Shown: in pieces, positions 4,367 through 18,351 of the stretch
Position numbering within the stretch: position 1 is the first letter of the stretch
Layout of the letters: each line of letters begins with the position of its first letter
Assembly (NCBI GenBank): GCA_965214845.1
Contig: CBDCCO010000007.1
Location: 5,748,549 to 5,780,548 of the forward strand
DNA length: 32,000 bases
Direction: 5' to 3'
Source: Vicinamibacterales bacterium
GTDB taxonomy: Bacteria; Acidobacteriota; Vicinamibacteria; Vicinamibacterales; UBA8438
Program-made: the position numbers and the translations under genes
Notes under the pieces: generated by a model
Seen by the model: the letters and a program-made list of their open reading frames with translations, nothing else
The model's database searches: none
What the model was told of the DNA's origin: nothing

Positions 4367-6124
4367 CTACTCCAGCGCGAAGACGAACAGGTAGCTCGAG
4401 TTCTCCAGGTTGTCGTACCGCACCGGATGCAGGTGCCGCCCGCTCGCCTGCACCGCGATGTACTGCCGCGGGCCGACGGCGTAGGTGACGGGCGCCCCCT
4501 TGAGCGGCGTGCCGACGTTGAAGCGCCACAGCTCCTGCAGCGTCTCGTCGTGGTAGCCCACGACCCAGCCGTCCTGCAGCGCCGTGAACACCAGCCCGCC
4601 CGCCGTGGCGAGCATGCCCGAGCGGACCTCGATCTCCGTTATCGCCTTGGCGATGATCTGGTGCGTGTCGGCATCCAACGCCGTGACCGAGCCGTAGTAC
4701 AGGTCGCTCGTGTACTCGCGGCGCTCGCTCGCCGCGCGGTCCACTCCGCCCTCCGGAGACAGCGGCACCACGGCGGCGCCGCTCTGCGAGAAGCAGCCCT
4801 CGGTGCCCGCGCCGTAGGCAATCCCCTTCTCCGGGTTGAACGCCGTCGGCTGGTGCGCGATGCCGCCGTGCCACGTCGGGCAGGCCCGCTTCATCGTGTC
4901 GCGATCGGCGCGCAGCGCGCGCGCCTCGGGGTTGTAGATCTGGACGTCGAGATTCGGGTCGTAGTCCAGCGGCCGGCCGGTGACCGGATCGAGGCCGGCG
5001 GTCCAGTTGAGGTCGTTCACGTACTGCTCGCCCCTGATGAAGGCGCCGCTGGTGCGGTCGAGCGAATAGAAGAACCCGTTGCGCGCGTAGTGGGAGACGA
5101 CCTTGCGCAGCCGGCCGTCGATCATGGTGTCGTAGAGCATGTGGATGCCGACTTCGTCGTAGTCCCACGAGTCGTTCGGCGTGTACTGGAAGTGCCAGGC
5201 GCGCTCGCCGGTGGCGACGTCGACGGCGACGACCGAGTTGGTGTAGAGGTTGTCGCCCGGACGATACTCCGGATCGTAGATGGGATACGGGTTGCCGGTG
5301 CCGAAGATGTACAGGTTGCTCTCCGCATCGTAGGAGCCGGTCTGCCAGACCCCGCCGCCGCCCGTCTTCCAGGCGTTGTGGTCGTCCTTCCAGGTCTCGC
5401 TGCCGGGCTCGCCGGGCTCGGGCACCACGTACCAGCGCCACTTCTCCTCGCCGGTCTCGACGTCGAGCCCGGCGACCCAGCCGCGCGTCCCGGCGTCGCC
5501 GGTGCCGTTCTGGATGATGACCGTGCCGTCCGCCACGAGCGGCGCCGCGCGGAACGCCTCGCGCCCGCCGAACTCGTTGGTCGCGGCGACCTCGTGGTCC
5601 CAGATGATCTCCCCCGTGTCGCGGTCGAGCGCGATGACCCGGCCGTCCGGCAGGTTCGCCAGGACGCGCTCCTCCCACAACGCGATGCCGCGCGTCCGCG
5701 AGCGGTTGCCCTCGTGCTCCACGCCCGGATCGGTGATCCACACGAACTGGCCGTAGTCGGCTTGCCGCGCGTCGATCTTGTAGATGGTGCCCCAGCCGTC
5801 GCTGGTGTACATGAAGCCGTTGTCGATGAGCGGATTGAGCTCGTTCTCGGGACCGTTCTGGCCGGTGTCCTGCATGCCGCCGAGCGCCAGCGCCCACACC
5901 ATCCGCAGATCATTTACGTTGTCGCGATTGATCTGCGTGAGCTTAGAATAGCGCTGGGAGCCGTAGTCCCCGTTCATCAGGAGCCAGTTCTGCGGCTCGT
6001 TCTGGGCGTTGATCAAGCGGTCCCGGTTGACGGTGATCGTGTACTGGCCGCCCAGCGTCACGGCCCAGGCGGAAACGACGAGCGCGCACGCGGCAGCCGT
6101 TCGTAGCAGCAAGTGGCGATGCAT
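4367..6124 (-). CDS. PQQ-dependent dehydrogenase, methanol/ethanol (quinoprotein ADH) family
   Basis: I place the start at ATG 6124 (M13 of the track ORF), which has a GGAGGAG Shine-Dalgarno sequence and a signal peptide ('MHRHLLLRTAAACALVVSAWA'). Repeated beta-propeller 'A(L/V)D..TG...W' motifs are present, along with 'RPGDNLYTNSVVAVD' and 'TPNDSWDYDEVG'. Confidence 0.9.
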   Translation of the reverse strand: MHRHLLLRTAAACALVVSAWAVTLGGQYTITVNRDRLINAQNEPQNWLLMNGDYGSQRYSKLTQINRDNVNDLRMVWALALGGMQDTGQNGPENELNPLIDNGFMYTSDGWGTIYKIDARQADYGQFVWITDPGVEHEGNRSRTRGIALWEERVLANLPDGRVIALDRDTGEIIWDHEVAATNEFGGREAFRAAPLVADGTVIIQNGTGDAGTRGWVAGLDVETGEEKWRWYVVPEPGEPGSETWKDDHNAWKTGGGGVWQTGSYDAESNLYIFGTGNPYPIYDPEYRPGDNLYTNSVVAVDVATGERAWHFQYTPNDSWDYDEVGIHMLYDTMIDGRLRKVVSHYARNGFFYSLDRTSGAFIRGEQYVNDLNWTAGLDPVTGRPLDYDPNLDVQIYNPEARALRADRDTMKRACPTWHGGIAHQPTAFNPEKGIAYGAGTEGCFSQSGAAVVPLSPEGGVDRAASERREYTSDLYYGSVTALDADTHQIIAKAITEIEVRSGMLATAGGLVFTALQDGWVVGYHDETLQELWRFNVGTPLKGAPVTYAVGPRQYIAVQASGRHLHPVRYDNLENSSYLFVFALE

Positions 6125-6186: not shown

Positions 6187-7209
6187 ATGAGAAACTGGCT
6201 TGCGCCCGTGGCGTTGACGGTCGCCCTCGGCGTCTGGCCGGGAGCCGGACCGGCGGGCGCCCAGTCGGACGCCGCGTGGACCGCGACCCGCACCGCCTGG
6301 GACGATCCGGACCTGCAGGGCATCTGGGACTTTCGCACGCTGACGCCGCTGGAGCGTCCCGCCGAGCACGCCGGCAAGACGGTGCTCACCCCCGAGGAGG
6401 CGGCGCTCTACGTGCAGGAGCTGCCGTTCAGCAACTGGGACGACCGGGACCGCTGGGACCGCACGCAGGGGTTCAGCTTCGACAGCGACATCGAGCACGG
6501 CTACAACCGGTTCTGGCTGGACTTCGGCACGAGCGTCAACGCCGACCGGCGCACGTCGCTCATCGTCGATCCGCCCAACGGACGCATCCCCTGGGCGCCC
6601 GGCACGGCGTTCCTGCCCGACGGCCGGCTCGCCTGGGTGGAGGGCGAGGAACGGCCGGGCGGCTACGGCGACGCCTTCCTCGGACTCAACGCCGCCGGCC
6701 CCGAGGACCGGCCCCTGGGCGAGCGCTGCATCCTGGGCATGAACTCCGGACCGCCGATGAACCCTGGCGCGTACAACAACAACGTCCAACTGCTGCAGAC
6801 CCCCGACACGGTGGTCGTCTTCAACGAGATGGTCCACGACGCCCGCATCGTGCCCCTGGACGGACGTCCGCCTCTGCCGGCCGGGCTGCGCCAGTGGATG
6901 GGCGACTCGCGCGGGCGCTGGGACGGCGACACGCTGGTGGTCGAGACCGCCAACTTTCTTCGCGAGACGAACTTCGAGGGCTCGAGCGCGCGCCTGCACG
7001 TCGTCGAGCGGTTCACGCGCACGGGCCCCGAGGCGCTCGTCTACGAGTTCACGGTCGAGGACCCGCGCATGTGGACGCAGCCCTGGACGGCGCGGATTCC
7101 CATGCGGAGGACGGCGGGGCCCATCTTCGAGTACGCCTGTCACGAAGGAAACTACGGGCTGTTCAACATCCTGACCGGGGCCCGCGCCAGGGAGCGCGCG
7201 GAGCGCTAG
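6187..7209 (+). CDS. Secreted hypothetical protein, paralog family copy 1
   Basis: Start at ATG 6187 with a GGGAGG Shine-Dalgarno sequence, followed by a signal peptide. Family motifs are present: 'WDDPDLQGIW', 'SLIVDPPNGRIP', 'GPEDRPLGERC', 'DARIVPLDGRP', 'RQWMGDSRGRWDGDTLVVET', 'LHVVERFTR' and 'EYACHEGNY'. Confidence 0.8.
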   Translation: MRNWLAPVALTVALGVWPGAGPAGAQSDAAWTATRTAWDDPDLQGIWDFRTLTPLERPAEHAGKTVLTPEEAALYVQELPFSNWDDRDRWDRTQGFSFDSDIEHGYNRFWLDFGTSVNADRRTSLIVDPPNGRIPWAPGTAFLPDGRLAWVEGEERPGGYGDAFLGLNAAGPEDRPLGERCILGMNSGPPMNPGAYNNNVQLLQTPDTVVVFNEMVHDARIVPLDGRPPLPAGLRQWMGDSRGRWDGDTLVVETANFLRETNFEGSSARLHVVERFTRTGPEALVYEFTVEDPRMWTQPWTARIPMRRTAGPIFEYACHEGNYGLFNILTGARARERAER

Positions 7210-8996: not shown

Positions 8997-9320
8997 TCAC
9001 GCATGGAGGGCGAAACGCAGCGCGGCCGCGACCTGCGCCATGCGCTCGCGGGACAGCGTGGTAATGAGCGAGCCGACTCTTGCGCGCGACACGGTCTGGA
9101 TGTGATCGAGGTTGGCGGCGCAGTTTGCGGGCATGCCGTCGTCCGGCGTCAGGACAACCTCGGTGGGGATGTCGCGGATCGTGCGCGTCACCGGTGCGAC
9201 CGTCACCTCGGCGAGAAACTCCAGCGCCGCGGAGCGGGTCAGGATGACCACCGGCCGCTGCTTGTCCGGCCGCTCGAACCGATACCAGCGCACGTCGCCC
9301 CGCTGGATCAGTCTGGCCAC
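8997..9320 (-). CDS. mazF: MazF/PemK-family type II toxin (mRNA interferase)
   Basis: The C-terminal 107 aa of track ORF 8997..9623, with the start placed at GTG 9320, overlapping the antitoxin stop by 13 nt. Motifs: 'RGDVRWYRFERPDKQRPVVILT' and 'ANCAANLDHIQTVS'. Confidence 0.8.
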   Translation of the reverse strand: MARLIQRGDVRWYRFERPDKQRPVVILTRSAALEFLAEVTVAPVTRTIRDIPTEVVLTPDDGMPANCAANLDHIQTVSRARVGSLITTLSRERMAQVAAALRFALHA

Positions 9321-9547
9321 GCCTGCTCCGACTCCCAGGCGTCGAACTCGCCGCGGCGGACGGGATGACGTTCGTAGCCGCGGCGCTGCTGCCGCTCGCA
9401 GGCGTCTGCCTCCAGTTGCGCCAGCGCCGCGGTCAATGCCTCGCGCGTGAAGGCCGACCGGGTTGTCCCGAGGCCCTTCACTGCCGTGTCCACGGCTTCG
9501 ACGAGTTTCCAGTCCAACGTCATCTGGACGGTTCGCATACGCGGCAT
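9308..9547 (-). CDS. Ribbon-helix-helix (CopG/MazE-like) antitoxin
   Basis: 79-aa ORF directly upstream of and overlapping the MazF-like gene. 'MTLDWKLVEAVDTAVKGLGTTRSAFTREAL' fits an RHH strand-helix-helix pattern. The true start may be an internal Met (9538 or 9523). Confidence 0.7.
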   Translation of the reverse strand: MPRMRTVQMTLDWKLVEAVDTAVKGLGTTRSAFTREALTAALAQLEADACERQQRRGYERHPVRRGEFDAWESEQAWPD

Positions 9548-9554
9548 GACGACA

Positions 9555-9560
9555 ATTATA
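9555..9560 (-). promoter_or_regulatory. Candidate -10 box (TATAAT on the minus strand) for the RHH/MazF operon
   Basis: A perfect TATAAT lies in the only AT-rich patch of this intergenic region, 7 nt upstream of ATG 9547, next to the palindrome tagcta. Confidence 0.3.
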
Positions 9561-9622
9561 GCTAGTAGAATAAGCAGCAGAGTAGCTACGATGAACGCCG
9601 ACGGTCAGGCACGCCCGACGCA

Positions 9623-12472
9623 ATGATCGATCCGATCGCGAACGCCGCCACGCGGGCGGGTTGCTGCTGCGTCCTGGCCATGGTGCTGGCGGCGGGCGGC
9701 GTCCGTGCCGGCCAACCCCCCGCCCCGGCGTCCCCGGCGCCGCGCGCCGCGGTCGGCATCGTGCCGTTCACGAACCTGAGCCGCGCGGCGGCGGACCGCT
9801 GGATCGGCCGCGGCATCGCGGTCGCGCTCGCCGCCGACCTGCGGCGCGAGCACGGGCTCGAGGTCCTCGACGGCGTCCTGGGCGGCGAGTCGGCGGTCGC
9901 CGGCGACGAGGACGCCGCGCTGCGTTTCGCCCGCGAGCTCGGTGCGCGGTGGCTCGTGGCCGGAGACTACCAGCGGATCGGCGACGGGCTGCGCATCACC
10001 GCGCGCCTGATCGACGTTGCGACCGGCGTCGCCGCGCACGCCGAGCGCGTCGACGGCACGGTCGGCGAGCTGTTCGCGCTGCAAGATCGTCTCGCGGCCG
10101 CGCTCGGCCCCCGCCTGCGGGGCGCGAGCACGGCGGGCCGGCCCGCCGTGCCCCGGCCTGTTGCGGCCCCGCCGGCCGCGGCCCTGCCAGCGGCCGACCC
10201 GCCGAGCCCGGCGGGTCCGGTCCGCGCGCCGGCCAGCGGCCTGGCCGCGCCGACCCTGGCCATCTACGGCCCGCCGCCGCCGGTGGCGCCCGAAGTCGTC
10301 GCCCGGGACGCCGCCGGCCGCCTCACCATTCGCGCCGTCCGGCTCGCGGCGCCCATCGCGTTCGACGGTCGGCTCGACGACGAGATCTACACGACCGTGC
10401 CGCCGCTGTCCGACTTCATCCAGCAGGAGCCGCAGGAGGGGGCGCCGGCCACGGAGCGGACCGACGCGTGGGTGTTCTTCGACGACGAGCGCGTCTACTT
10501 CTCGTTCCGCGTCTGGGAGACCGCGCCGGAGCGCGTCATCGCCAACGAGATGCGGCGCGACAACTCCAACGTGTACCAGAACGACCACATCGCCTTCGTC
10601 ATCGACACGTTCTACGACCGCCGCAACGCGCTGGAGTTCCTCGTCAACCCGATGGGCGGCCGCATGGACGGCCAGATCACCAACGAGCGCTTCTACAACG
10701 GCGACTGGAACCCCATCTGGGACGTCGAGGTCGGCGAGTTCGACGGCGGCTGGACGCTCGAGACCGCCATCCCGTTCAAGTCGATCCGCTATCGGCGCGG
10801 GGCGGCCCAGATCTGGGGCTTCAACGTGCGCCGGGTGAGCATCTGGAAGAACGAGCACTCGTTCCTCACCCGCGTGCCCAGCTCCATGGGCGGCTCGGGG
10901 ATCTTCCTGATGTCGCGGGCGGCGACCCTGGTCGGGATCGAGGCGCCGGTGCAGTCGACGAATCTCGACATCAAGCCGTTCGCCATCATGGACCTGAGCA
11001 GCGACCACCTCGTGCGTCCGGCCATCTCCAACGCGCTCGGCGGCGATGCGGGCCTCGACGTGAAGTACGGCGTCACGCAGAACCTGGTGGCCGACCTGAC
11101 GGTCAACACGGACTTCGCCCAGGTCGAGGCGGACGAGCAGCAGGTGAACCTGACACGGTTCAGCCTGTTCTTTCCCGAGAAGCGCGAGTTCTTCCTCGAG
11201 AACCAGGGTCTGTTCGCGTTCGGCGGCGCCGGCTCCGGCGCGTTCGGAGGCAGCGGCAGCACGCCGATACTCTTCTACAGCCGCCGCATCGGCCTGCACG
11301 AGGGGCGCGAGGTCCCGATCCGGGCCGGCGGGCGGCTGAGCGGCCGCATGGGCCGGTTCAGCGTCGGGGCGCTGAACATCCAGACGGGCGACACGCAGCT
11401 CGGCGGCGCGCCGGCCGACCGGGTGCAGGCCGCGAACTTCACCGTGCTGCGGGTCAAGCGGGACGTGCTGCGGCGCAGCAGCGTCGGCGGCATCTTCACC
11501 CGGCGCGCCGGCTCGCACGGCGGACCCGCGTGGAACGAGGCCTACGGCCTCGACGGCACGTTCTCCTTCTTCGACGACCTCACCATCAACACGTACTGGG
11601 CCCAGACCCGCGCCGCCGAGCGCCTGCAGGACGACGTCAGCTACCGCGGACAGCTCGACTACGCCGGCGACCGCTACGGCGTGCAGCTCGAGCACCTCGT
11701 GGTCGGCGACAACTTCAACCCGGAGGTGGGATTCCTGCAGCGCGACGACTTCGAGCGCAGCTACGGCGCCTTCCGGTTCAGTCCTCGCCCGCACGCCATC
11801 GCGGCCATCCGCAAGCTGTACTTCGAGGGCCGGCTCGACTACTTCACCGACCGGACGGGCGTCGTCGAGACGCGGATCGGCCAGGGGCTCTTCTCCATCG
11901 AGTTCGAGAGCAGCGACCGCTTCGACGCCACCTACACGCGCAGCTACGAGTTTCTCGACCAGCCGTTCCGGATCGCGTCCGACGTGACGATCCCGGTCGG
12001 CGGCTACCGCTTCCAGGACGTGGATCTGCTCTACAGCTTCGGCCTGCAGCGGCGGCTGAGCGGCGGACTGGGCATCCAGCACGGCAGCTTCTTCGGCGGG
12101 GAGAAGACGACCGCGCGGCTCGGACTGGGCGGATTCCGCCGCAGCGGCCGGCTGGAAGTGTCGCCGCAGGTCTCCGTGGAGCCGGGCTTCGAGTACAACC
12201 GCATCACGCTGCCCCAGGGGCAGTTCACCACGCGGCTCGTGACCACGCGGACCACCTACACGGTCACGCCGCTCATGTTCGTCAGCGCGCTGCTGCAGTA
12301 CAACTCCACCAACAACTCGCTGGGCGCCAACGTCCGGCTGCGCTGGGAGTACCAGCCGGGCAGCGAGCTGTTCGTGGTATACAACGAGCAGCGCAACACG
12401 CTGACGCCGCGCATGCCCGTACTGCAGAACCGGGCCCTGATCGTCAAGTTCAACCGCCTGTTCCGGTTCTGA
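9623..12472 (+). CDS. DUF5916 / carbohydrate-binding-family-9-like outer-membrane protein with an N-terminal TolB-N/FlgO-like domain
   Basis: 949-aa ORF with a signal peptide. The CBM9-like region reads 'FDGRLDDEIY...DFIQQEPQEG...NDHIAFVIDTFYDRRNALEF...W..A IPFKSIRY'. A long beta-barrel-like C-terminal region ends in 'KFNRLFRF' (terminal Phe). Confidence 0.75.
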   Translation: MIDPIANAATRAGCCCVLAMVLAAGGVRAGQPPAPASPAPRAAVGIVPFTNLSRAAADRWIGRGIAVALAADLRREHGLEVLDGVLGGESAVAGDEDAALRFARELGARWLVAGDYQRIGDGLRITARLIDVATGVAAHAERVDGTVGELFALQDRLAAALGPRLRGASTAGRPAVPRPVAAPPAAALPAADPPSPAGPVRAPASGLAAPTLAIYGPPPPVAPEVVARDAAGRLTIRAVRLAAPIAFDGRLDDEIYTTVPPLSDFIQQEPQEGAPATERTDAWVFFDDERVYFSFRVWETAPERVIANEMRRDNSNVYQNDHIAFVIDTFYDRRNALEFLVNPMGGRMDGQITNERFYNGDWNPIWDVEVGEFDGGWTLETAIPFKSIRYRRGAAQIWGFNVRRVSIWKNEHSFLTRVPSSMGGSGIFLMSRAATLVGIEAPVQSTNLDIKPFAIMDLSSDHLVRPAISNALGGDAGLDVKYGVTQNLVADLTVNTDFAQVEADEQQVNLTRFSLFFPEKREFFLENQGLFAFGGAGSGAFGGSGSTPILFYSRRIGLHEGREVPIRAGGRLSGRMGRFSVGALNIQTGDTQLGGAPADRVQAANFTVLRVKRDVLRRSSVGGIFTRRAGSHGGPAWNEAYGLDGTFSFFDDLTINTYWAQTRAAERLQDDVSYRGQLDYAGDRYGVQLEHLVVGDNFNPEVGFLQRDDFERSYGAFRFSPRPHAIAAIRKLYFEGRLDYFTDRTGVVETRIGQGLFSIEFESSDRFDATYTRSYEFLDQPFRIASDVTIPVGGYRFQDVDLLYSFGLQRRLSGGLGIQHGSFFGGEKTTARLGLGGFRRSGRLEVSPQVSVEPGFEYNRITLPQGQFTTRLVTTRTTYTVTPLMFVSALLQYNSTNNSLGANVRLRWEYQPGSELFVVYNEQRNTLTPRMPVLQNRALIVKFNRLFRF
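12362..12386. repeat. 25-bp direct repeat, copy 1 (agcgagctgttcgtggtatacaacg)
   Basis: Perfect match to 13971..13995. This copy lies inside the 3' end of the DUF5916 CDS (codons for SELFVVYN). Confidence 0.9.
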
Positions 12473-12544
12473 GCGGACGGCAGGCGTCCCCCGTTTCCGG
12501 CTACGTGCCCGTTGCAGTCCGGCCGAGCGCCGCCCGGTTCTGGC

Positions 12545-12572
12545 TTGGCGATCAGAACAGGATAGGTATAAT
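12545..12572 (+). promoter_or_regulatory. Candidate sigma70-type promoter (TTGGCG-N16-TATAAT) with an overlapping inverted repeat
   Basis: ttggcg lies at 12545-12550 and tataat at 12567-12572. The inverted repeat ataggt...acctat (12562-12583) spans the -10 box. A caggag Shine-Dalgarno sequence at 12591-12596 precedes GTG 12603. Confidence 0.4.
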
Positions 12573-12602
12573 AGGACACCTATTCACCGACAGGAGACAC
12601 CT

Positions 12603-13517
12603 GTGACCGGGACACCAACCACCTTCTGGGAACACGTCGAGGACCTGCGCCGGCGGAGGCTGATTGCCCGCGTCTGGAAAATTGGCCACCTCATCGAGCA
12701 CCTCGAGGGGTCGTTCAAGGCGAATGCCATCAACGTCATTCCGTACAATTCCAGCGTTTCGAGAGAAGGCGCAGGGCTTGGAGACTACGTGAAGAGGGGG
12801 GTCGCTCCCAGGGCATGGCGGGTAGGACGAGGCCAGTTCCAACTGATCGCCGATCCTGAGGACGATGCGTCCACCCGGGCATCCCAGAAGAGCTGGGCGA
12901 TGAAACGAGCGGAGCAGCTCAGAGCGCTGAAGAGGCGGCCGGGTGTTCGGCGGGACACGACTCCGGCGTCGCAGCCTGATCGTTTCGGCCCGGAAAACGA
13001 GTCGGTACCGGGTTCCTCGGAATTGTACTCATCGATACCCGTCACCCTCACCGACTCGGACCGCGAAGCCATCGAGCACCTCACGACCGAGCAGAGAGCC
13101 TTGCACATCGTGAAGAAGCACCTCATCGAGAAGCACGGAGGCCAAGTGACGATCGAAGAGGACGAGGCCGGCGCCGATCTCAGGGTCTCCGTCAGCGGGG
13201 ACAGCGAGAGAATCGAGGTCAAGGGCACCGAGTCGCCGAGCATCGCCTGGCAGCAGCTGAAGGTGTCCAGCCAGAGATCCCACGACGCCCTGGAGAGCCG
13301 CGAGGCGTCGATCTACCGCGTCGTCGATGTCGGCGGCGCGCATCCTCGGATCTACGTTCTGAAGCACGGGCAGCACTTCACGCTGGAGCCTGAGCTCAGA
13401 TGGGCGGTGAAGCGGCTCCCGCCGACAGACGGCCGCTATCCGTTGAGAGGGGAACCTTATCAGTACGATCGTCCATACGATTCAGTTGCGGCGCATGAAT
13501 GGGAGTTCCAGGGGTGA
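12603..13517 (+). CDS. Hypothetical protein with a C-terminal DUF3883-like (PD-(D/E)xK nuclease-like) domain; upstream partner of the PIN toxin
   Basis: 304-aa ORF with a GTG start. The C-terminal region 'GADLRVSVSGDSERIEVKGTESPSIAWQQLKVSSQRSHDALESREASIYRVVDV' matches the D...EVK...hYhV pattern of DUF3883. Its stop overlaps the PIN start (GTGA). Confidence 0.65.
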   Translation: MTGTPTTFWEHVEDLRRRRLIARVWKIGHLIEHLEGSFKANAINVIPYNSSVSREGAGLGDYVKRGVAPRAWRVGRGQFQLIADPEDDASTRASQKSWAMKRAEQLRALKRRPGVRRDTTPASQPDRFGPENESVPGSSELYSSIPVTLTDSDREAIEHLTTEQRALHIVKKHLIEKHGGQVTIEEDEAGADLRVSVSGDSERIEVKGTESPSIAWQQLKVSSQRSHDALESREASIYRVVDVGGAHPRIYVLKHGQHFTLEPELRWAVKRLPPTDGRYPLRGEPYQYDRPYDSVAAHEWEFQG

Positions 13518-13903
13518 TCGTGCTGGATACCCATGCCTGGGTATGGTGGACGATCGATCCTTCGCGACTGGGCGAGACTCAGCGGCAGGCGATAGCCGAC
13601 AGTGAGGGCGACCGGATTGGCGTCAGCGCGATCTCCTGCTGGGAAGTGGCGAAGCTGTGCGAGTACGGACGCCTTGCGTTGCCCGTCGGGCTGTCCGAGT
13701 GGTTCCGAGCCGCGCTCGGCTACCCGGGCGTCACACTCCTCGATCTCACGCCGGAAATTGCCATCGAGTCGACGTCCTTGCCAGGCGTCTTCCATCGCGA
13801 CCCGTCCGACCGGATCATCGTCGCGACCGCCCGAGTACACCGAAGCCCGCTTGTGACCTCCGACGACAAGATCGTCAGCTACCCGCACGTGCAAACGCTG
13901 TAG
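13514..13903 (+). CDS. vapC: PIN-domain (VapC-like) type II toxin ribonuclease
   Basis: I place the start at GTG 13514 (GTGA overlap with the upstream stop). Motifs 'IVLDTHAWVWW', 'DPSDRIIVATA' and 'LVTSDDKI' provide the conserved acidic PIN residues. Confidence 0.85.
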   Translation: MIVLDTHAWVWWTIDPSRLGETQRQAIADSEGDRIGVSAISCWEVAKLCEYGRLALPVGLSEWFRAALGYPGVTLLDLTPEIAIESTSLPGVFHRDPSDRIIVATARVHRSPLVTSDDKIVSYPHVQTL

Positions 13904-13914
13904 CCCGTGGAGGA

Positions 13915-13939
13915 GGGGATCCAGGGGGGGGATCCAGGG
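13915..13939. repeat. Tandem GGGGATCCAGGG x2 (13-bp period) with a G8 run
   Basis: ggggatccaggg occurs at 13915-13926 and again at 13928-13939, and a third 'gggggat' lies at 13944-13950. The repeat sits between the PIN stop and direct-repeat copy 2. Confidence 0.85.
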
Positions 13940-13970
13940 TGCCGGGGGATGCGTTGCCGACGATGGGGAG

Positions 13971-13995
13971 AGCGAGCTGTTCGTGGTATACAACG
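13971..13995. repeat. 25-bp direct repeat, copy 2
   Basis: Perfect match to 12362..12386. It is intergenic, 28 nt upstream of ATG 14024. Confidence 0.9.
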
Positions 13996-14023
13996 TGGTC
14001 CGCAGCGAATCGGGAGGTCCTGT

Positions 14024-15035
14024 ATGAGAAACCGCGCCAACCGTCGCCAACGCCTCGCAGCAGCGTCGTGCTCGATCGCCGCGGCTCTCGTGCTCTCGGC
14101 CGCGCCGGCCGCCGGTCAGGGCGAGAGTGCGTCGCCGGCGGCTCGCACGCCGTGGGGCGACCCCGATCTGCAGGGAATCTGGTACTTCGCCACCGTCACG
14201 CCCATGGAGCCCCGCAGAGCTGGCCGGCCGGGCGGTGCTGACGGAGGAAGAGGCGGCCGCCGTCGAGCAACGGTATGCCACCGCCCGGGACCGGCCGAAT
14301 CCGCGCATCGGGGAGGAGTGTCCCGCGGAGTTCTTCGCCTGCGAGGGGTCGGGGCTCGCGTACGAGTGGCGCATCTGGCTGGACCTCGGCACCACGGTCG
14401 TCAGCACGCGGCGCACGTCGCTGGTGGTGGACCCGCCGGACGGGCGCATCCCCGCGCTGACGCCCGCGGGCGAGGCGCGGCGGCAGGCGGAGCTGGCCGC
14501 GTACGCGCGCGCCGCCGGTCCCGAGGATTTCTTCCTGCACGACCGCTGCGTGGTGGGCTACAACTCCGGACCGCCCTTGACGCCGGGGCCGTCCCTGAAT
14601 CTCGTGCAGGTGTTCCAGAGCCCGGGATTCGTCGCGATCCGGCCGGAGATCGGCGATGCCCGGGTGATCCCGACGGACGGTCGCCCGCGCAGCACGTTCC
14701 GGCAGTGGCAGGGCCAGCCGCGCGGCCGCTGGGAGGGCGACACGCTGGTCGTGGAGACCCGCCACGCGCGCGTCTTCATGAACGCGACGCAGGCGACCCC
14801 GTGGCTGCGCCTCGTCGAACGCTTCACGCGCACGGAGGCTGATACGCTTCTCTACGAGGTGCAGGTCGAGGATCCGACCACCTGGACGCGGCCGTGGGCG
14901 TTCGAGCTGCCGATGACGCGCAGCGCCGGCCCGCTCTACGAGTACGGCTGTCACGAAGGCAACTACTCGCTGCCGGTCATGCTCGGCGGCGCCCGGCTGG
15001 CCGAGCGAAACGCCGCGACGGCGCCCGCGCGCTGA
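14024..15035 (+). pseudogene. Paralog family copy 2, frameshifted near 14210
   Basis: The N-terminus ('MRNRANRR...signal...TPWGDPDLQGIWYFATVTPME') is in the frame of ATG 14024, with a GGGAGG Shine-Dalgarno sequence. The rest ('PAELAGRAVLTEEE...EYGCHEGNY') is in the frame of track ORF 14127..15035. Compared with the four other copies, the conserved Arg codon of '(E/Q)RPAE' is reduced to a single c at 14210. Confidence 0.75.
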
Positions 15036-15063
15036 GCGGCCCCGACCGCTCAGGAGGTGTTCG

Positions 15064-16074
15064 ATGCCGAATCTCGACCGTCGTCTTCCAGCCGGCCTGG
15101 CGTCGTGTTCGATCGTTACCGCCGTGCTGCTGCTGGCGCCCGTGCCGGCCGCCGGCCAGGCCGGCCCGCCGCCCTCGCCGACGCCGTGGGGGGCGCCCGA
15201 TCTGCAGGGCATCTGGAGCTTCGCCACCCTGACGCCGATGCAGCGGCCCGCGGAGCTGGCGGGCCGGGCGGTGCTGACGGCGGAAGAGGCGGCCGCCTAC
15301 GAGCAGCGCGACGCCGAGATTCGCAGCCGGCCGAATCCGGCCACCTTCGACGAAGCGTGTCCCGAGGACTTTCCGTTCTGCAGCCAGGCGCCGCTGGCGT
15401 ACGAGTTCCGCATCTGGCTCGATCGCGGCACCACGGTCGTGAGCACGCGGCGCTCGTCGCTGGTGGTGGACCCGCCGGACGGACGCATCCCCGCGCTGAC
15501 CCCCGCGGCGCAGGCGCAACGGGAAGCGGCGCGCGCCGCCAGCCTGCGGGCCCGCGGCCCGGAGGACCGCAGCACGGTCGACCGCTGCATCGTGGGCTTC
15601 AACGCCGGGCCGCCGGTCACGCCCGGACCGTACCTGAATCACCTGCAGGTGTTCCAGAGCCCGGGCTACGTGGCGCTCCTCCCGGAGATGGGCGATGCCC
15701 GGGTGATCCCAACGGACGGACGCCCGCGGGGCGCCTTCCGGCAGTGGCAGGGCCAGCCGCGCGGCCGCTGGGAGGGCAGCACGCTGGTCGTGGAGACCCG
15801 CCACGCGCGCACGTTCATGCGCGACCCGGCCGGCCCGGCGCTGCGCCTCGAGGAACGCTTCACGCGCGCCGACGACGGCACGCTGCTCTACGAGGTGCGG
15901 GTGGACGACCCGACCACCTGGATCCGGCCGTGGGCGTTCGAGGTGCCGATGACGCGCAGCGCGGGCCCGCTCTACGAGTACGCCTGCCACGAGGGCAACT
16001 ACGCGATGCCCAACATCCTCAGCGCCGCGCGCGCCGAGGAGCGCGCCAGCGCCCCATCACCGCCCACGCGCTGA
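15064..16074 (+). CDS. Secreted hypothetical protein, paralog family copy 3
   Basis: AGGAGG Shine-Dalgarno sequence and a signal peptide. Motifs: 'WGAPDLQGIW', 'SLVVDPPDGRIP', 'GPEDRSTVDRC', 'DARVIPTDGRP', 'RQWQGQPRGRWEGSTLVVET' and 'EYACHEGNY'. It is very similar to copy 2, suggesting tandem duplication. Confidence 0.85.
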   Translation: MPNLDRRLPAGLASCSIVTAVLLLAPVPAAGQAGPPPSPTPWGAPDLQGIWSFATLTPMQRPAELAGRAVLTAEEAAAYEQRDAEIRSRPNPATFDEACPEDFPFCSQAPLAYEFRIWLDRGTTVVSTRRSSLVVDPPDGRIPALTPAAQAQREAARAASLRARGPEDRSTVDRCIVGFNAGPPVTPGPYLNHLQVFQSPGYVALLPEMGDARVIPTDGRPRGAFRQWQGQPRGRWEGSTLVVETRHARTFMRDPAGPALRLEERFTRADDGTLLYEVRVDDPTTWIRPWAFEVPMTRSAGPLYEYACHEGNYAMPNILSAARAEERASAPSPPTR

Positions 16075-16082
16075 CGAGCGCT

Positions 16083-16169
16083 CCGAGGCGCGCACAGCGC
16101 GCCTCGGCGGGAGCGGCGCGGGGCGAAGGGCCCCCGCAAGCGGACGCCGGGGGCTCGGGGCGCAGCCCC
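16083..16169. repeat. Structured GC-rich intergenic repeat element, copy A
   Basis: An 11-bp perfect hairpin (ccgaggcgcgc-aca-gcgcgcctcgg, 16083-16107) is followed by a 62-bp segment (16108-16169) that is near-identical to 21792-21854, with one indel and one substitution. It lies between convergent genes. Confidence 0.8.
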
Positions 16170-16175
16170 GTCCAA

Positions 16176-17387
16176 TCAACGCTGCAGCGGGTCGGCCTCG
16201 TCACCCGACTCGGCGAAGCCGCCGCCGAATCCGCCGCAGGCGGTGGTGCCGCCGGCGATGCACAGGCTCGCCGGATCCGGGCCGCGCCCCTCCTCGAAGG
16301 CACGCTCGCCGGCCCGCGCGCCGGCGAGCAGCCCCGGCAGGCCGTAGTTGCCCTCGTGGCAGCGGGGCTCCCTGTAGATGCGGTTCGCCCGGTTGTCCTG
16401 CAGGCTCAGCTCGAGGGTGACCGTCCACGGCCGCACCCACGTGGTCGGATCCTCCATCGTGGCGACGTACTCGATCGTCTCGGCGTCGATCCGCCGCCAG
16501 CGCTCGACCACGTGCAGGTTCTCGCGCGCGCCGTAGAAGTCGGTCTTGGCGCTGAAGTTGGTCACGTCGACCACCAGCGTGTCGCCCTCCCAGCGGCCGC
16601 GCGAGTCCCCCCACCACTGGCGCACGTCGGGCGGCAGGTGCGGCCGGTCGGTCACCGGGATGACGCGCTGCCAGCCCTGCCCCTGGCCGGTGTCGTAGAA
16701 GATCGAGACCGTGCCGGGCGCCTGCACCACCTGCAGGAAGAACCCGGTGGAGCCGCCGAAGTCGGGCAGGCGCGCGCCGATGCAGCGCTCCGACAGGCTG
16801 CGGTCCTCGGGCCCGTAGGCGCGGTTCGAGTTGCGGGTCAGGTAGTGCGGCGCCGGCTCCTCCCAGCGCGGCGACCGCGGTCCGTACGGCGGACAGCCCG
16901 GCCGGCTCTCCCGGCAGGCGTCGGTGGACCGCAGGAGGGCCTGGTGGTACTCGTTCATCTCGTCCCGCCGCGCCTGCACCTCCGGCGTGACGGCCGGCAA
17001 CTGCCCGTCCGGCGGGTCGATGATGAGCGAGGTCCGCTCGCCGAGATGCTTGTGGGTGAGGAAGATGGACGCGTCGTAGGCGCCGCCGACGTCCTGCTCG
17101 CTGCCCGGCTCCGAACGCCGCGTGCCCAGCAGCCGCGCGCGCTCGCTGTCGATGGCGGCCCGTTCCTCCTCCGTGAAGAACTCGCGGTCGGCGTAGCGCG
17201 CCGGCCGCTCGAGCGGCGTGTCGTAGTTCGTCGTCCAGATCCCCTGCAGGTCCGGATCGCCCCACGCGGTGCGGAGCCCGGCGCCGGGCGCCTGTCCCTC
17301 GATCGTGGCCGAAGCCAGTTGCAGCAGCACGATCACGGCCGCAAGGACCGTCAGCACGCCGGTCAGCTCGATGACTCGTCTCTTCAT
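16176..17387 (-). CDS. Secreted hypothetical protein, paralog family copy 4 (longer, with a Gly/Cys-rich C-terminal tail)
   Basis: Start at ATG 17387 with a GGAGG Shine-Dalgarno sequence. Motifs: 'WGDPDLQGIW', 'SLIIDPPDGQLP', 'GPEDRSLSERC', 'RQWWGDSRGRWEGDTLVVDVTNF', 'LHVVERWRR' and 'RCHEGNY'. Confidence 0.85.
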   Translation of the reverse strand: MKRRVIELTGVLTVLAAVIVLLQLASATIEGQAPGAGLRTAWGDPDLQGIWTTNYDTPLERPARYADREFFTEEERAAIDSERARLLGTRRSEPGSEQDVGGAYDASIFLTHKHLGERTSLIIDPPDGQLPAVTPEVQARRDEMNEYHQALLRSTDACRESRPGCPPYGPRSPRWEEPAPHYLTRNSNRAYGPEDRSLSERCIGARLPDFGGSTGFFLQVVQAPGTVSIFYDTGQGQGWQRVIPVTDRPHLPPDVRQWWGDSRGRWEGDTLVVDVTNFSAKTDFYGARENLHVVERWRRIDAETIEYVATMEDPTTWVRPWTVTLELSLQDNRANRIYREPRCHEGNYGLPGLLAGARAGERAFEEGRGPDPASLCIAGGTTACGGFGGGFAESGDEADPLQR

Positions 17388-17430
17388 CTCGAACCTCCAC
17401 ACCCAACCAACTCCGCTGATCTCCTCGCCG

Positions 17431-18351
17431 TCACTGGCCCAGCTCGTCGTAGATGGCCTGCACGGCGCGGTCCACGCCGGCCAGATCGTAGTCGGGGTAG
17501 CGCGGCTGCAGCTCCAGGCCGGCGACTGCCTCGTCCACGCTGCGGCCGGCCTCGAAGGCCGCCCGCGCGGCGCCGAGCAGGTCGCGCGTGAACCCCGCGT
17601 ACTCCCGGAAGTCGTCCCAGGTCGTCCAGCCGCGCACGGGGCTGCCCGTCGGCGGCGGCGCGTGTCCGGGCATCACGCGCTCCACGTCCGCGATCCCCGC
17701 CAGGGCGCTCGCCAGGGTCTCCGGGTAGGCCACGCCGCTGCCCCCGTTCGCCCGATCGATGAACGGCGGCGCCTTGCGCGGGAACAGGTCGCCGACGTGC
17801 GCCGTGGCGAGCCCCGGAAAGACCACGATCGTGTCGCCGTTCGTGTGCGCCGGACCGAAGTGGTAGAGGTCGATCCGGTCCCGGCCCTCGAAGAGCGACA
17901 GGCTGTCGCGATACGTCTCGTTCGGCAGGAAGCGGGCGTTGTCGCCGGCGAACACCTCGGAGCCGGCCATCGCCGTCCCGGCGTTCTCGTGCGCGGCGAT
18001 GCGGACCACGTCCGAAAAATGGGGATTGCTGCCGGTATGGTCGCCGTGCGCGTGCGTGTTGATGAGGGTGGTGATCGGCTCGTCGGTCACCGCGCGCACC
18101 GCGTCGAGAATGGCCGGTCCCCAGCCCGGGTTCTTCGTGTCGACGAGCACGACGCCGTGGTCGTCGGTCACGAGCATCGCCGTGTGGCCGCCGCCGCCGC
18201 TGACGAGGTACAGGTTCTCCGCGACGCCCATCGACTGGACGGTCACCGAGCGCCGTTCCTGCGCCGCCTGGCTGCCGGCGACGGCCGCCGTGAGCAGGCC
18301 GGCCAGCAGCAGGCCGGGCGCCGCCGCCCGTCTCAGGTGCATTCGTCTCAT
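17431..18351 (-). CDS. MBL-fold metallo-hydrolase (secreted)
   Basis: The C-terminal 306 aa of track ORF 17431..19608, with the start placed at ATG 18351, followed by a signal peptide. Motifs: 'INTHAHGDHTGSN' (HxHxDH) and 'GPAHTNGD'. Confidence 0.85.
   Translation of the reverse strand: MRRMHLRRAAAPGLLLAGLLTAAVAGSQAAQERRSVTVQSMGVAENLYLVSGGGGHTAMLVTDDHGVVLVDTKNPGWGPAILDAVRAVTDEPITTLINTHAHGDHTGSNPHFSDVVRIAAHENAGTAMAGSEVFAGDNARFLPNETYRDSLSLFEGRDRIDLYHFGPAHTNGDTIVVFPGLATAHVGDLFPRKAPPFIDRANGGSGVAYPETLASALAGIADVERVMPGHAPPPTGSPVRGWTTWDDFREYAGFTRDLLGAARAAFEAGRSVDEAVAGLELQPRYPDYDLAGVDRAVQAIYDELGQ

Follow-up and report, generated by a model that had tools for sequence, protein, structure and literature searches.

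Layout of the locus

We analyzed a window of 32,000 nt (G000:C7:5748549-5780548) of the 7.36-Mb genome under study, G000. In this window a gene for a DUF5916 outer-membrane protein (X) is followed by a two-gene cassette, consisting of gene 1 and a gene for a PIN (VapC-like) toxin, and then by a gene for a secreted protein (Z). Our subject is a perfect 25-bp direct repeat, AGCGAGCTGTTCGTGGTATACAACG, of which one copy (R1) lies in the codons for SELFVVYN near the end of X and the other (R2) outside genes, 28 nt ahead of the Z start codon and just before its ribosome-binding site (RBS). These are the only exact matches to the 25-mer in the window, both on the + strand, and no further match with three or fewer mismatches was found there; none is expected by chance (0 in 100 shuffles). 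The last 86 nt of X, beyond R1, are called Y. Genomes are labeled G (congeners from G001 onward) and loci or alleles L; about 20 related loci were compared overall. Feature coordinates are collected in Table 1.

Table 1. Features of the X-Z locus, with positions counted from the first nucleotide of the window
Feature	Position	Strand	Description	Evidence or occurrence
X, DUF5916 outer-membrane protein gene	9623..12472	+	949 aa, ends ...NRLFRF*	Pfam DUF5916 E=2.7e-18
R1	12362..12386	+	inside X, encodes SELFVVYN; template copy, under coding constraint	same motif in ~21 paralogs
Y	12387..12472	+	final 86 nt of X including stop codon	orthologous in G004, G002, and all other relatives
Left cassette spacer	12473..12602	+	holds promoter	promoter scan
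Gene 1	12603..13517	+	304 aa, weak NOV_C/DUF3883	Pfam NOV_C E=2.9e-4, below curated cut-off
PIN (VapC-like) toxin gene	13514..13903	+	129 aa, GTG start	Pfam PIN E=7e-16
Post-PIN spacer	13904..13970	+	common to R2-bearing alleles alone	aligned with L025, L059, L061, L064
R2	13971..13995	+	orphan non-coding copy of R1 at junction of post-PIN spacer and Z 5' leader	
Z 5' leader	13996..14023	+	RBS GGGAGG at 14012-14017	homologous to post-stop sequence of empty sites
Z1	14024..15035	+	secreted-protein paralog, frameshifted near 14210	frameshift in G000 alone

An earlier inspection of the letters alone (the sequence-only reading) had described the repeat, its placement and what lies between its copies, namely the 86 nt of X, a promoter-like region, gene 1 with its weak NOV_C/DUF3883 similarity and the PIN gene, and our open reading frame (ORF), translation and Pfam analyses and promoter scan agree with it on all of these. 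It had also noted the lower GC content of the insert. The value is 63.7%, whereas the genome as a whole has 70.7%, the DUF5916 gene 71.1% and the downstream genes 73.9%. Pfam finds gene 1 and PIN alone in the insert, with no integrase or transposase, in keeping with its proposal of a fossil or non-autonomous islet. A sigma70-like promoter, TTGGCG-16-TATAAT, was called at 12545-12572; the inverted repeat ATAGGT/ACCTAT that surrounds its -10 box (12562-12567 / 12578-12583) is a possible operator. The GTG start codon of PIN and the stop codon of gene 1 overlap in a GTGA.

Copies of the 25-mer in the genome

A search of the whole genome with the 25-mer, which the sequence-only reading had proposed, found the exact sequence, with its rare GTA codon, at R1 and R2 alone, but with up to three mismatches allowed the motif is not rare. 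Of the 23 such sites in 7.36 Mb, nearly all lie at the 3' ends of DUF5916 paralogs, about 21 of which were translated and all end in ...SELFVVY(N/T)...RLFRF*. The exceptions are a paralog near C7:2196064 that is interrupted by an insertion sequence (IS), and R2, the sole copy outside a DUF5916 gene. R2 has only 38 open codons before it and VVRSESGGPV* after it. Since R2 is identical to the adjacent R1 at 25/25 positions and the remaining paralogs differ by at least 1 nt, R2 was copied from the neighboring gene.

The interrupted paralog carries, inside its SELFVVYN motif, a 276-nt 3' fragment of an IS256-like element (G000:C7:2195789-2196064; L030 ~6790-7065, minus strand), after which it resumes at CTACAACGAGCAG..RLFRF*. 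The element is 1450 nt long, encodes a Mutator-type transposase of ~425 aa, makes 8-bp target duplications and has the inverted repeats GGGGATGTCCCG.../...CGGGACAATCCC. It was located at 7138228-7138503 of G000:C7 and at 14 other places (loci L032-L036), and its full copies, at least 12 of them, are 100% identical, which indicates a very recent expansion.

This insertion could mean that the SELFVVYN-coding motif is recombination-prone or a preferred target, R2 being one of several products of breakage or insertion there. The fragment entered its paralog at CTACAACG, within the same motif; its junction (..ACAACG, with the break after the final G) coincides with the right edge of R2; and under uniform insertion ~15 IS copies would rarely strike ~21 motifs of 25 nt in 7.3 Mb. 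However, there are just two such events, noticed post hoc; the target duplications of the other IS copies do not resemble the motif; no IS-like sequence lies near R2, and the element has no similarity to the window. The identical IS copies must moreover be recent, whereas R2 predates ~8% divergence. We regard this explanation as unlikely.

Orthologous loci and the edges of the insert

X has orthologs of 90-97% nucleotide identity in eight congeners, and the X-Z neighborhood is kept in eight congeners; in the more distant congeners G009, G003, and G001 a convergent gene follows X in place of Z. Two genomes, G004 and G002, have the empty site with a single repeat copy that the sequence-only reading had suggested looking for: the X stop codon directly abuts the Z leader. 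Three others (G008, G007, and G010) have cassette remnants, in which the promoter, the last ~35 codons of gene 1 or both survive together with the first PIN codons. Every one of these empty-site and remnant genomes has one copy of the 25-mer.

The junction in G004 reads TGA-AC-GTCCGCAGCGAAACGGGAGG..ATG (preceded by TTC), compared with R2-TG-GTCCGCAGCGAATCGGGAGG in G000, and the extra DNA of G000 runs from 12473 to ~13995. Alignment with the empty sites therefore places the left edge of the insert after the stop codon, at 12473 and 86 nt past R1. Y is host DNA outside the insert. With R1 and Y both belonging to the host, R2 alone lies at an insert edge, and the claim that the 25-bp repeat brackets the insert is thus incorrect. 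Import of Y together with the cassette was considered and rejected, as Y shows no elevated divergence and is ordinary orthologous sequence. On its right side R2 is followed, within 3 nt or less, by the beginning of the homology between the Z leader and the empty-site genomes; it thus sits between a lineage-specific post-PIN spacer and a leader shared with those genomes.

Further cassette-bearing assemblies came to light when gene 1 and PIN were used as protein queries and the contigs of the matches were examined. R2 is confined to five or six related alleles, namely those of G000, L025/L060, L061, L059, L064, and L062. The 2.2-kb contig of L025/L060 is collinear with 12296-14479 at 91.5% identity, and the 501-nt contig of L062 stops inside R2 and does not extend to R1. 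L025 (DAOUKL010000043.1) was deposited in a Dehalococcoidia metagenome-assembled genome (MAG; GCA_034421335.1), in which it is probably mis-binned, since the locus it matches is probably acidobacterial and contains a gene for an outer-membrane protein. A search for the R2 junction across 104 genomes of the family matched G000 alone. The post-PIN spacer, 52-67 nt across the R2-bearing lineage, is unique within the G000 genome. In it G000 has a GGGGATCCAGGG pair at 13915-13926 and 13928-13939, which the sequence-only reading had also recommended as a query. The pair is a 13-nt tandem duplication private to G000, the other R2-bearing alleles having a single GGCATCCAGG there; elsewhere in the 7.36 Mb GGGGATCCAGGG has one copy, near chance (our estimate is 1-3 for a 12-mer on both strands).

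The occurrence of R2 in several alleles bears on the possibility that the second copy is an artefact, produced when sequence was falsely joined or duplicated at a shared k-mer during assembly. G000 is a MAG-like assembly with 6.2% contamination, and a probable 2-nt error or frameshift lies 215 nt downstream. But five further assemblies, made with different assemblers from different samples, have the same two-copy layout (L025/L060, L061, L059, L064, and partly L062), and an artefact has a negligible chance of being the explanation.

Intact X-gene 1-PIN-Z without R2, at the same locus, is found in L049, L054, L050, L055/56/57, L051, L052, and L063, which makes at least seven independent assemblies; relatives with the same two genes and no repeat are what the sequence-only reading had itself named as refuting integration at the repeat. 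These alleles have a different spacer after PIN and then a different Z leader; their spacer has no significant similarity to that of the R2-bearing alleles, and no direct repeats flanking the cassette were found in them. The left spacer and promoter are conserved in L025, L048-L052, G007, and G010.

Age and decay of R2

A tree of the 1.28-kb cassette was made with IQ-TREE and rooted on L026 + L053, two Chloroflexota-type loci in which the same gene pair has unrelated contexts. The R2 alleles form one clade (support 89/93) nested among R2-less alleles, with L048+L063 as its sister; L048 is uninformative on R2, as its contig stops within PIN. R2 therefore arose once, after the cassette was resident. 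It has since acquired singleton substitutions in three alleles (C7T in L059, G15A in L064, and G6T in L062), and R1 is exact in all R2-bearing alleles in which it is assembled. Variation in R2 beside an invariant R1 means that there is neither ongoing gene conversion nor a requirement for identity, and the perfect identity of R2 in G000 is just the absence of mutation so far.

These results bear directly on the reading of the two 25-mers as attL/attR cores, or as the target-site duplication, of a site-specifically integrated non-autonomous cassette. Much about the G000 locus invites it: the two perfect 25-bp direct copies are separated by 1.6 kb and one of them lies in the 3' end of a gene, as in many integrase islands, the insert is lower in GC, and relatives have single-copy empty sites. 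Yet the left edge of the insert is 86 nt from R1 and Y is ordinary orthologous host sequence, the same cassette occupies the same place without R2 in at least seven alleles, R2 is phylogenetically derived and decaying, and the insert has no recombinase. None of the ~21 other genomic copies of the motif has a cassette or an orphan partner, and the cassette homologs in L026 and L053 do not adjoin DUF5916 genes. No terminal inverted repeats of the insert are among the repeats listed for 9000-17500. We consider this reading very unlikely, and the repeat does not mark integration; what stands of the sequence-only proposal is that the region is DNA which some congeners lack, that it is a fossil or non-autonomous islet with no recombinase, and that an event of the microhomology type probably made the second copy.

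Could R2 and its flanks instead be a selected functional element, such as a Z promoter that restored expression once the cassette had separated Z from X? Its position just before the RBS would suit this, ~30 nt ahead of the Z ATG stands TGGTATACA, which looks like an extended -10 box, the organism uses sigma70-like promoters, and a 57-nt block is identical in G000 and L025 within spacers that are otherwise ~80% identical. Against this, the promoter scan calls no sigma70-type promoter at R2, and the -10-like hexamer TATACA has no final T. In L064 the substitution hits the TG of the extended -10 motif, in L059 and L062 R2 is mutated at other positions, and alleles without R2 express Z from different sequence upstream of it. 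TATAC arises from a GTA codon that R1 also has in such R2-less alleles as L050 and L055, and GTA in R1 does not correlate with R2 or with leader type. Rfam gave no match to the R2 region and RNA folding no stable structure (z=+0.77), and in L025 a TAG closes the upstream ORF that runs through R2. A functional R2 thus seems improbable to us. A motif hotspot with R2 and the IS256-like insertion as its products, or alternatively a 57-nt block that regulates Z, has only a small chance of being correct.

R2 as a probable junction scar

We favor, at a probability of roughly 0.72, the interpretation that R2 is the scar of a late illegitimate-recombination junction beside an old, vertically inherited PIN cassette. 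An ancestor of this probably acidobacterial species group would have received the cassette immediately behind the X stop codon, with no repeats flanking it. Some lineages would since have kept it, in others deletions of the microhomology type would have eroded it, and two would have lost it cleanly. R2 would have been made later, once and in one sub-lineage, during illegitimate recombination between PIN and the Z leader that left a piece of the most conserved motif of the neighboring gene at the junction. It would now be functionless and drifting. The remnant deletion junctions in three congeners are of the microhomology type (in G008 the PIN-leader junction is a microhomology deletion at AT), and the genome has a Ku homolog, so that end-joining is available. 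Candidate microhomologies at R2 itself are AACG or CG at its right edge and a CGTGGT repeat across it.

The molecular route we can only infer, and two appear about equally likely. By route (a), the patch would have been copied from R1 by template switching or end-joining (filler DNA), giving the junction ..TTCGTGGTATACAACGTGGTCC.. with CGTGGT used twice. By route (b), the 111-nt 3' end of X (R-Y-stop) would have been duplicated ahead of Z, for example if cassette-bearing DNA joined an empty allele by homologous recombination in X and by illegitimate recombination at the R1 of that allele. A deletion of 89 nt, running between two AACG microhomologies, would have followed and left the 25-mer alone. 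The intermediate would read post-PIN spacer, 25-mer, AGCAGCGC..., a second full X 3' end. De Vries and Wackernagel reportedly described in 2002 duplications and deletions that result from homology-facilitated illegitimate recombination of the kind route (b) would use. Route (b) would also explain the clean empty sites, through recombination between the long duplicates. A single deletion can explain them equally well: it would have used the TGA of the stop codon and a cTTGAc that R2-less alleles have equally far from the ATG. The term homology-facilitated illegitimate recombination is used in PMC6382021 and PMC8504540.

Some observations weigh against the scar interpretation. An intermediate with the full R-Y duplication was not found among the loci compared, which leaves route (b) unproven, and both routes need one extra 3-nt change relative to G004 and G002. 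The 57-nt block (13946-14002) shared by G000 and L025 could hint at constraint, a hint that is countered by its variation in L059 and L064.

The putative toxin-antitoxin cassette and its decay

The protein encoded by gene 1 is modeled (AlphaFold, pLDDT 78.6) as two folded domains, an N-domain (1-111) and a PD-(D/E)xK-like NOV_C domain (~140-272), with a disordered linker and a C-terminal tail that is conserved but of low confidence. Fold searches against the PDB gave weak matches to the MGME1 and Hjc nucleases, none at E<=0.001, and the PDB has no sequence matches to the protein; no NCBIfam or PADLOC model matches gene 1 or PIN. The ~126 full-length homologs of gene 1 come mostly from Chloroflexota MAGs, and none was found in 200 genomes of the order. 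Metagenome contigs scanned with gene 1 yielded distant relatives of the C-terminal domain alone, none of them adjoining a PIN gene.

The PF01850 match of PIN covers 1-116 of 120, and among its 1806 homologs at E<=1e-40 one is named a VapC family toxin by NCBI. PIN is always paired with gene 1, including in the unrelated contexts of L026 and L053, and gene 1 is a putative antitoxin or partner of the PIN protein. At the protein level G000 and L025 share 97.7% identity in PIN and 88% in gene 1, and for G000 and the Chloroflexota L026 the figures are 81% and 57%, a pattern that fits a conserved toxin with a faster-evolving partner. The pair is uncharacterized and fairly widespread, and may merit a test of its own.

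In the decayed cassettes of G008 (L010), G007 (L012), and G010 (L014), PIN is lost and the last ~35 codons of gene 1 remain in an open frame, behind the original promoter in G007 and G010 and spanning an in-frame internal deletion in G008. There are thus two independent types of remnant (G008, and one shared by G007 and G010) that keep the tail in frame. Such tails may be orphan mini-antitoxins; their retention would be expected if the tail neutralizes the toxin and decay removes the toxin gene first.

In L049, L051, and L052 the post-PIN spacer encodes a small membrane ORF of ~75-91 aa, which is also found downstream of the G010 remnant. This conserved ORF (MSPEFWAILGVGVPVMAVAVSGLVML...) lies between PIN and the next gene and has one predicted membrane helix and a coiled coil; its places are L049 ~4500-4760, L051 2002-2277, L052, L063 1711-1938, and L014 (G010). 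It is absent in G000 and truncated in L050, L055, G007, and G005. Derivation of the G000 post-PIN spacer from it was tried and rejected (p ~0.2).

Neighboring genes

Directly upstream of X, at 9000-9547 on the minus strand, is a toxin-antitoxin pair of RHH (CopG-like) and MazF/PemK genes, so that X has toxin-antitoxin modules on both flanks. On the other side, Z1 is the first of two tandem secreted-protein paralogs, and the single named relative of the Z paralog comes from an Acidobacteria MAG. Z1 has 2 nt missing at a C-run (~14205-14215) compared with its paralog and all relatives, and the gap reflects either a frameshift of G000 alone or an error in sequencing; L025, G007, G013, and G005 read through at this place.

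Comparison with known systems

The locus is a case of ordinary genome decay around a toxin-antitoxin islet, and a compact and well-sampled record of how such an islet ages between two host genes: intact, toxin-deleted, remnant, cleanly lost and junction-scar states are all seen between X and Z. It also carries a caution, in that a perfect direct repeat around low-GC cargo, which resembles an att pair, proves to be a late and drifting by-product.

The cassette resembles type II VapBC toxin-antitoxin systems in that a PIN toxin gene is translationally coupled (GTGA) to an upstream partner, a sigma70-like promoter with an inverted repeat precedes the pair, the pair moves as a unit between phyla (Chloroflexota L026 and L053), and decayed copies lose the toxin gene first. 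It differs in the partner, which at 304 aa and with a PD-(D/E)xK-like NOV_C domain is unlike the usual antitoxin of ~80 aa; of the small DNA-binding antitoxin domains (AbrB, RHH, Phd, HTH) none was found in it, the weak NOV_C match being the only one.

Integrase islets with tRNA- or tmRNA-type att sites are similar in that one repeat copy lies within the 3' portion of a gene and its partner on the far side of lower-GC cargo, and in that relatives have one-copy empty sites. Here, however, a recombinase is lacking, the left edge of the cargo is not adjoined by the repeat, most alleles carry the cargo without the repeat, and the displaced gene end is absent after R2.

The closest likeness is to illegitimate-recombination scars, in which a short stretch identical to a nearby template stands at the junction of segments of different ancestry, with a few bases of possible microhomology at its edges; a single origin followed by drift and the presence of a Ku homolog belong to the same picture. 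The R2 locus differs from these in that the event was unobserved and no intermediate or donor was found among the loci compared. Typical fill-ins of bacterial end-joining, moreover, are shorter than a patch of 22-25 nt and have a nearer source than 1.6 kb.

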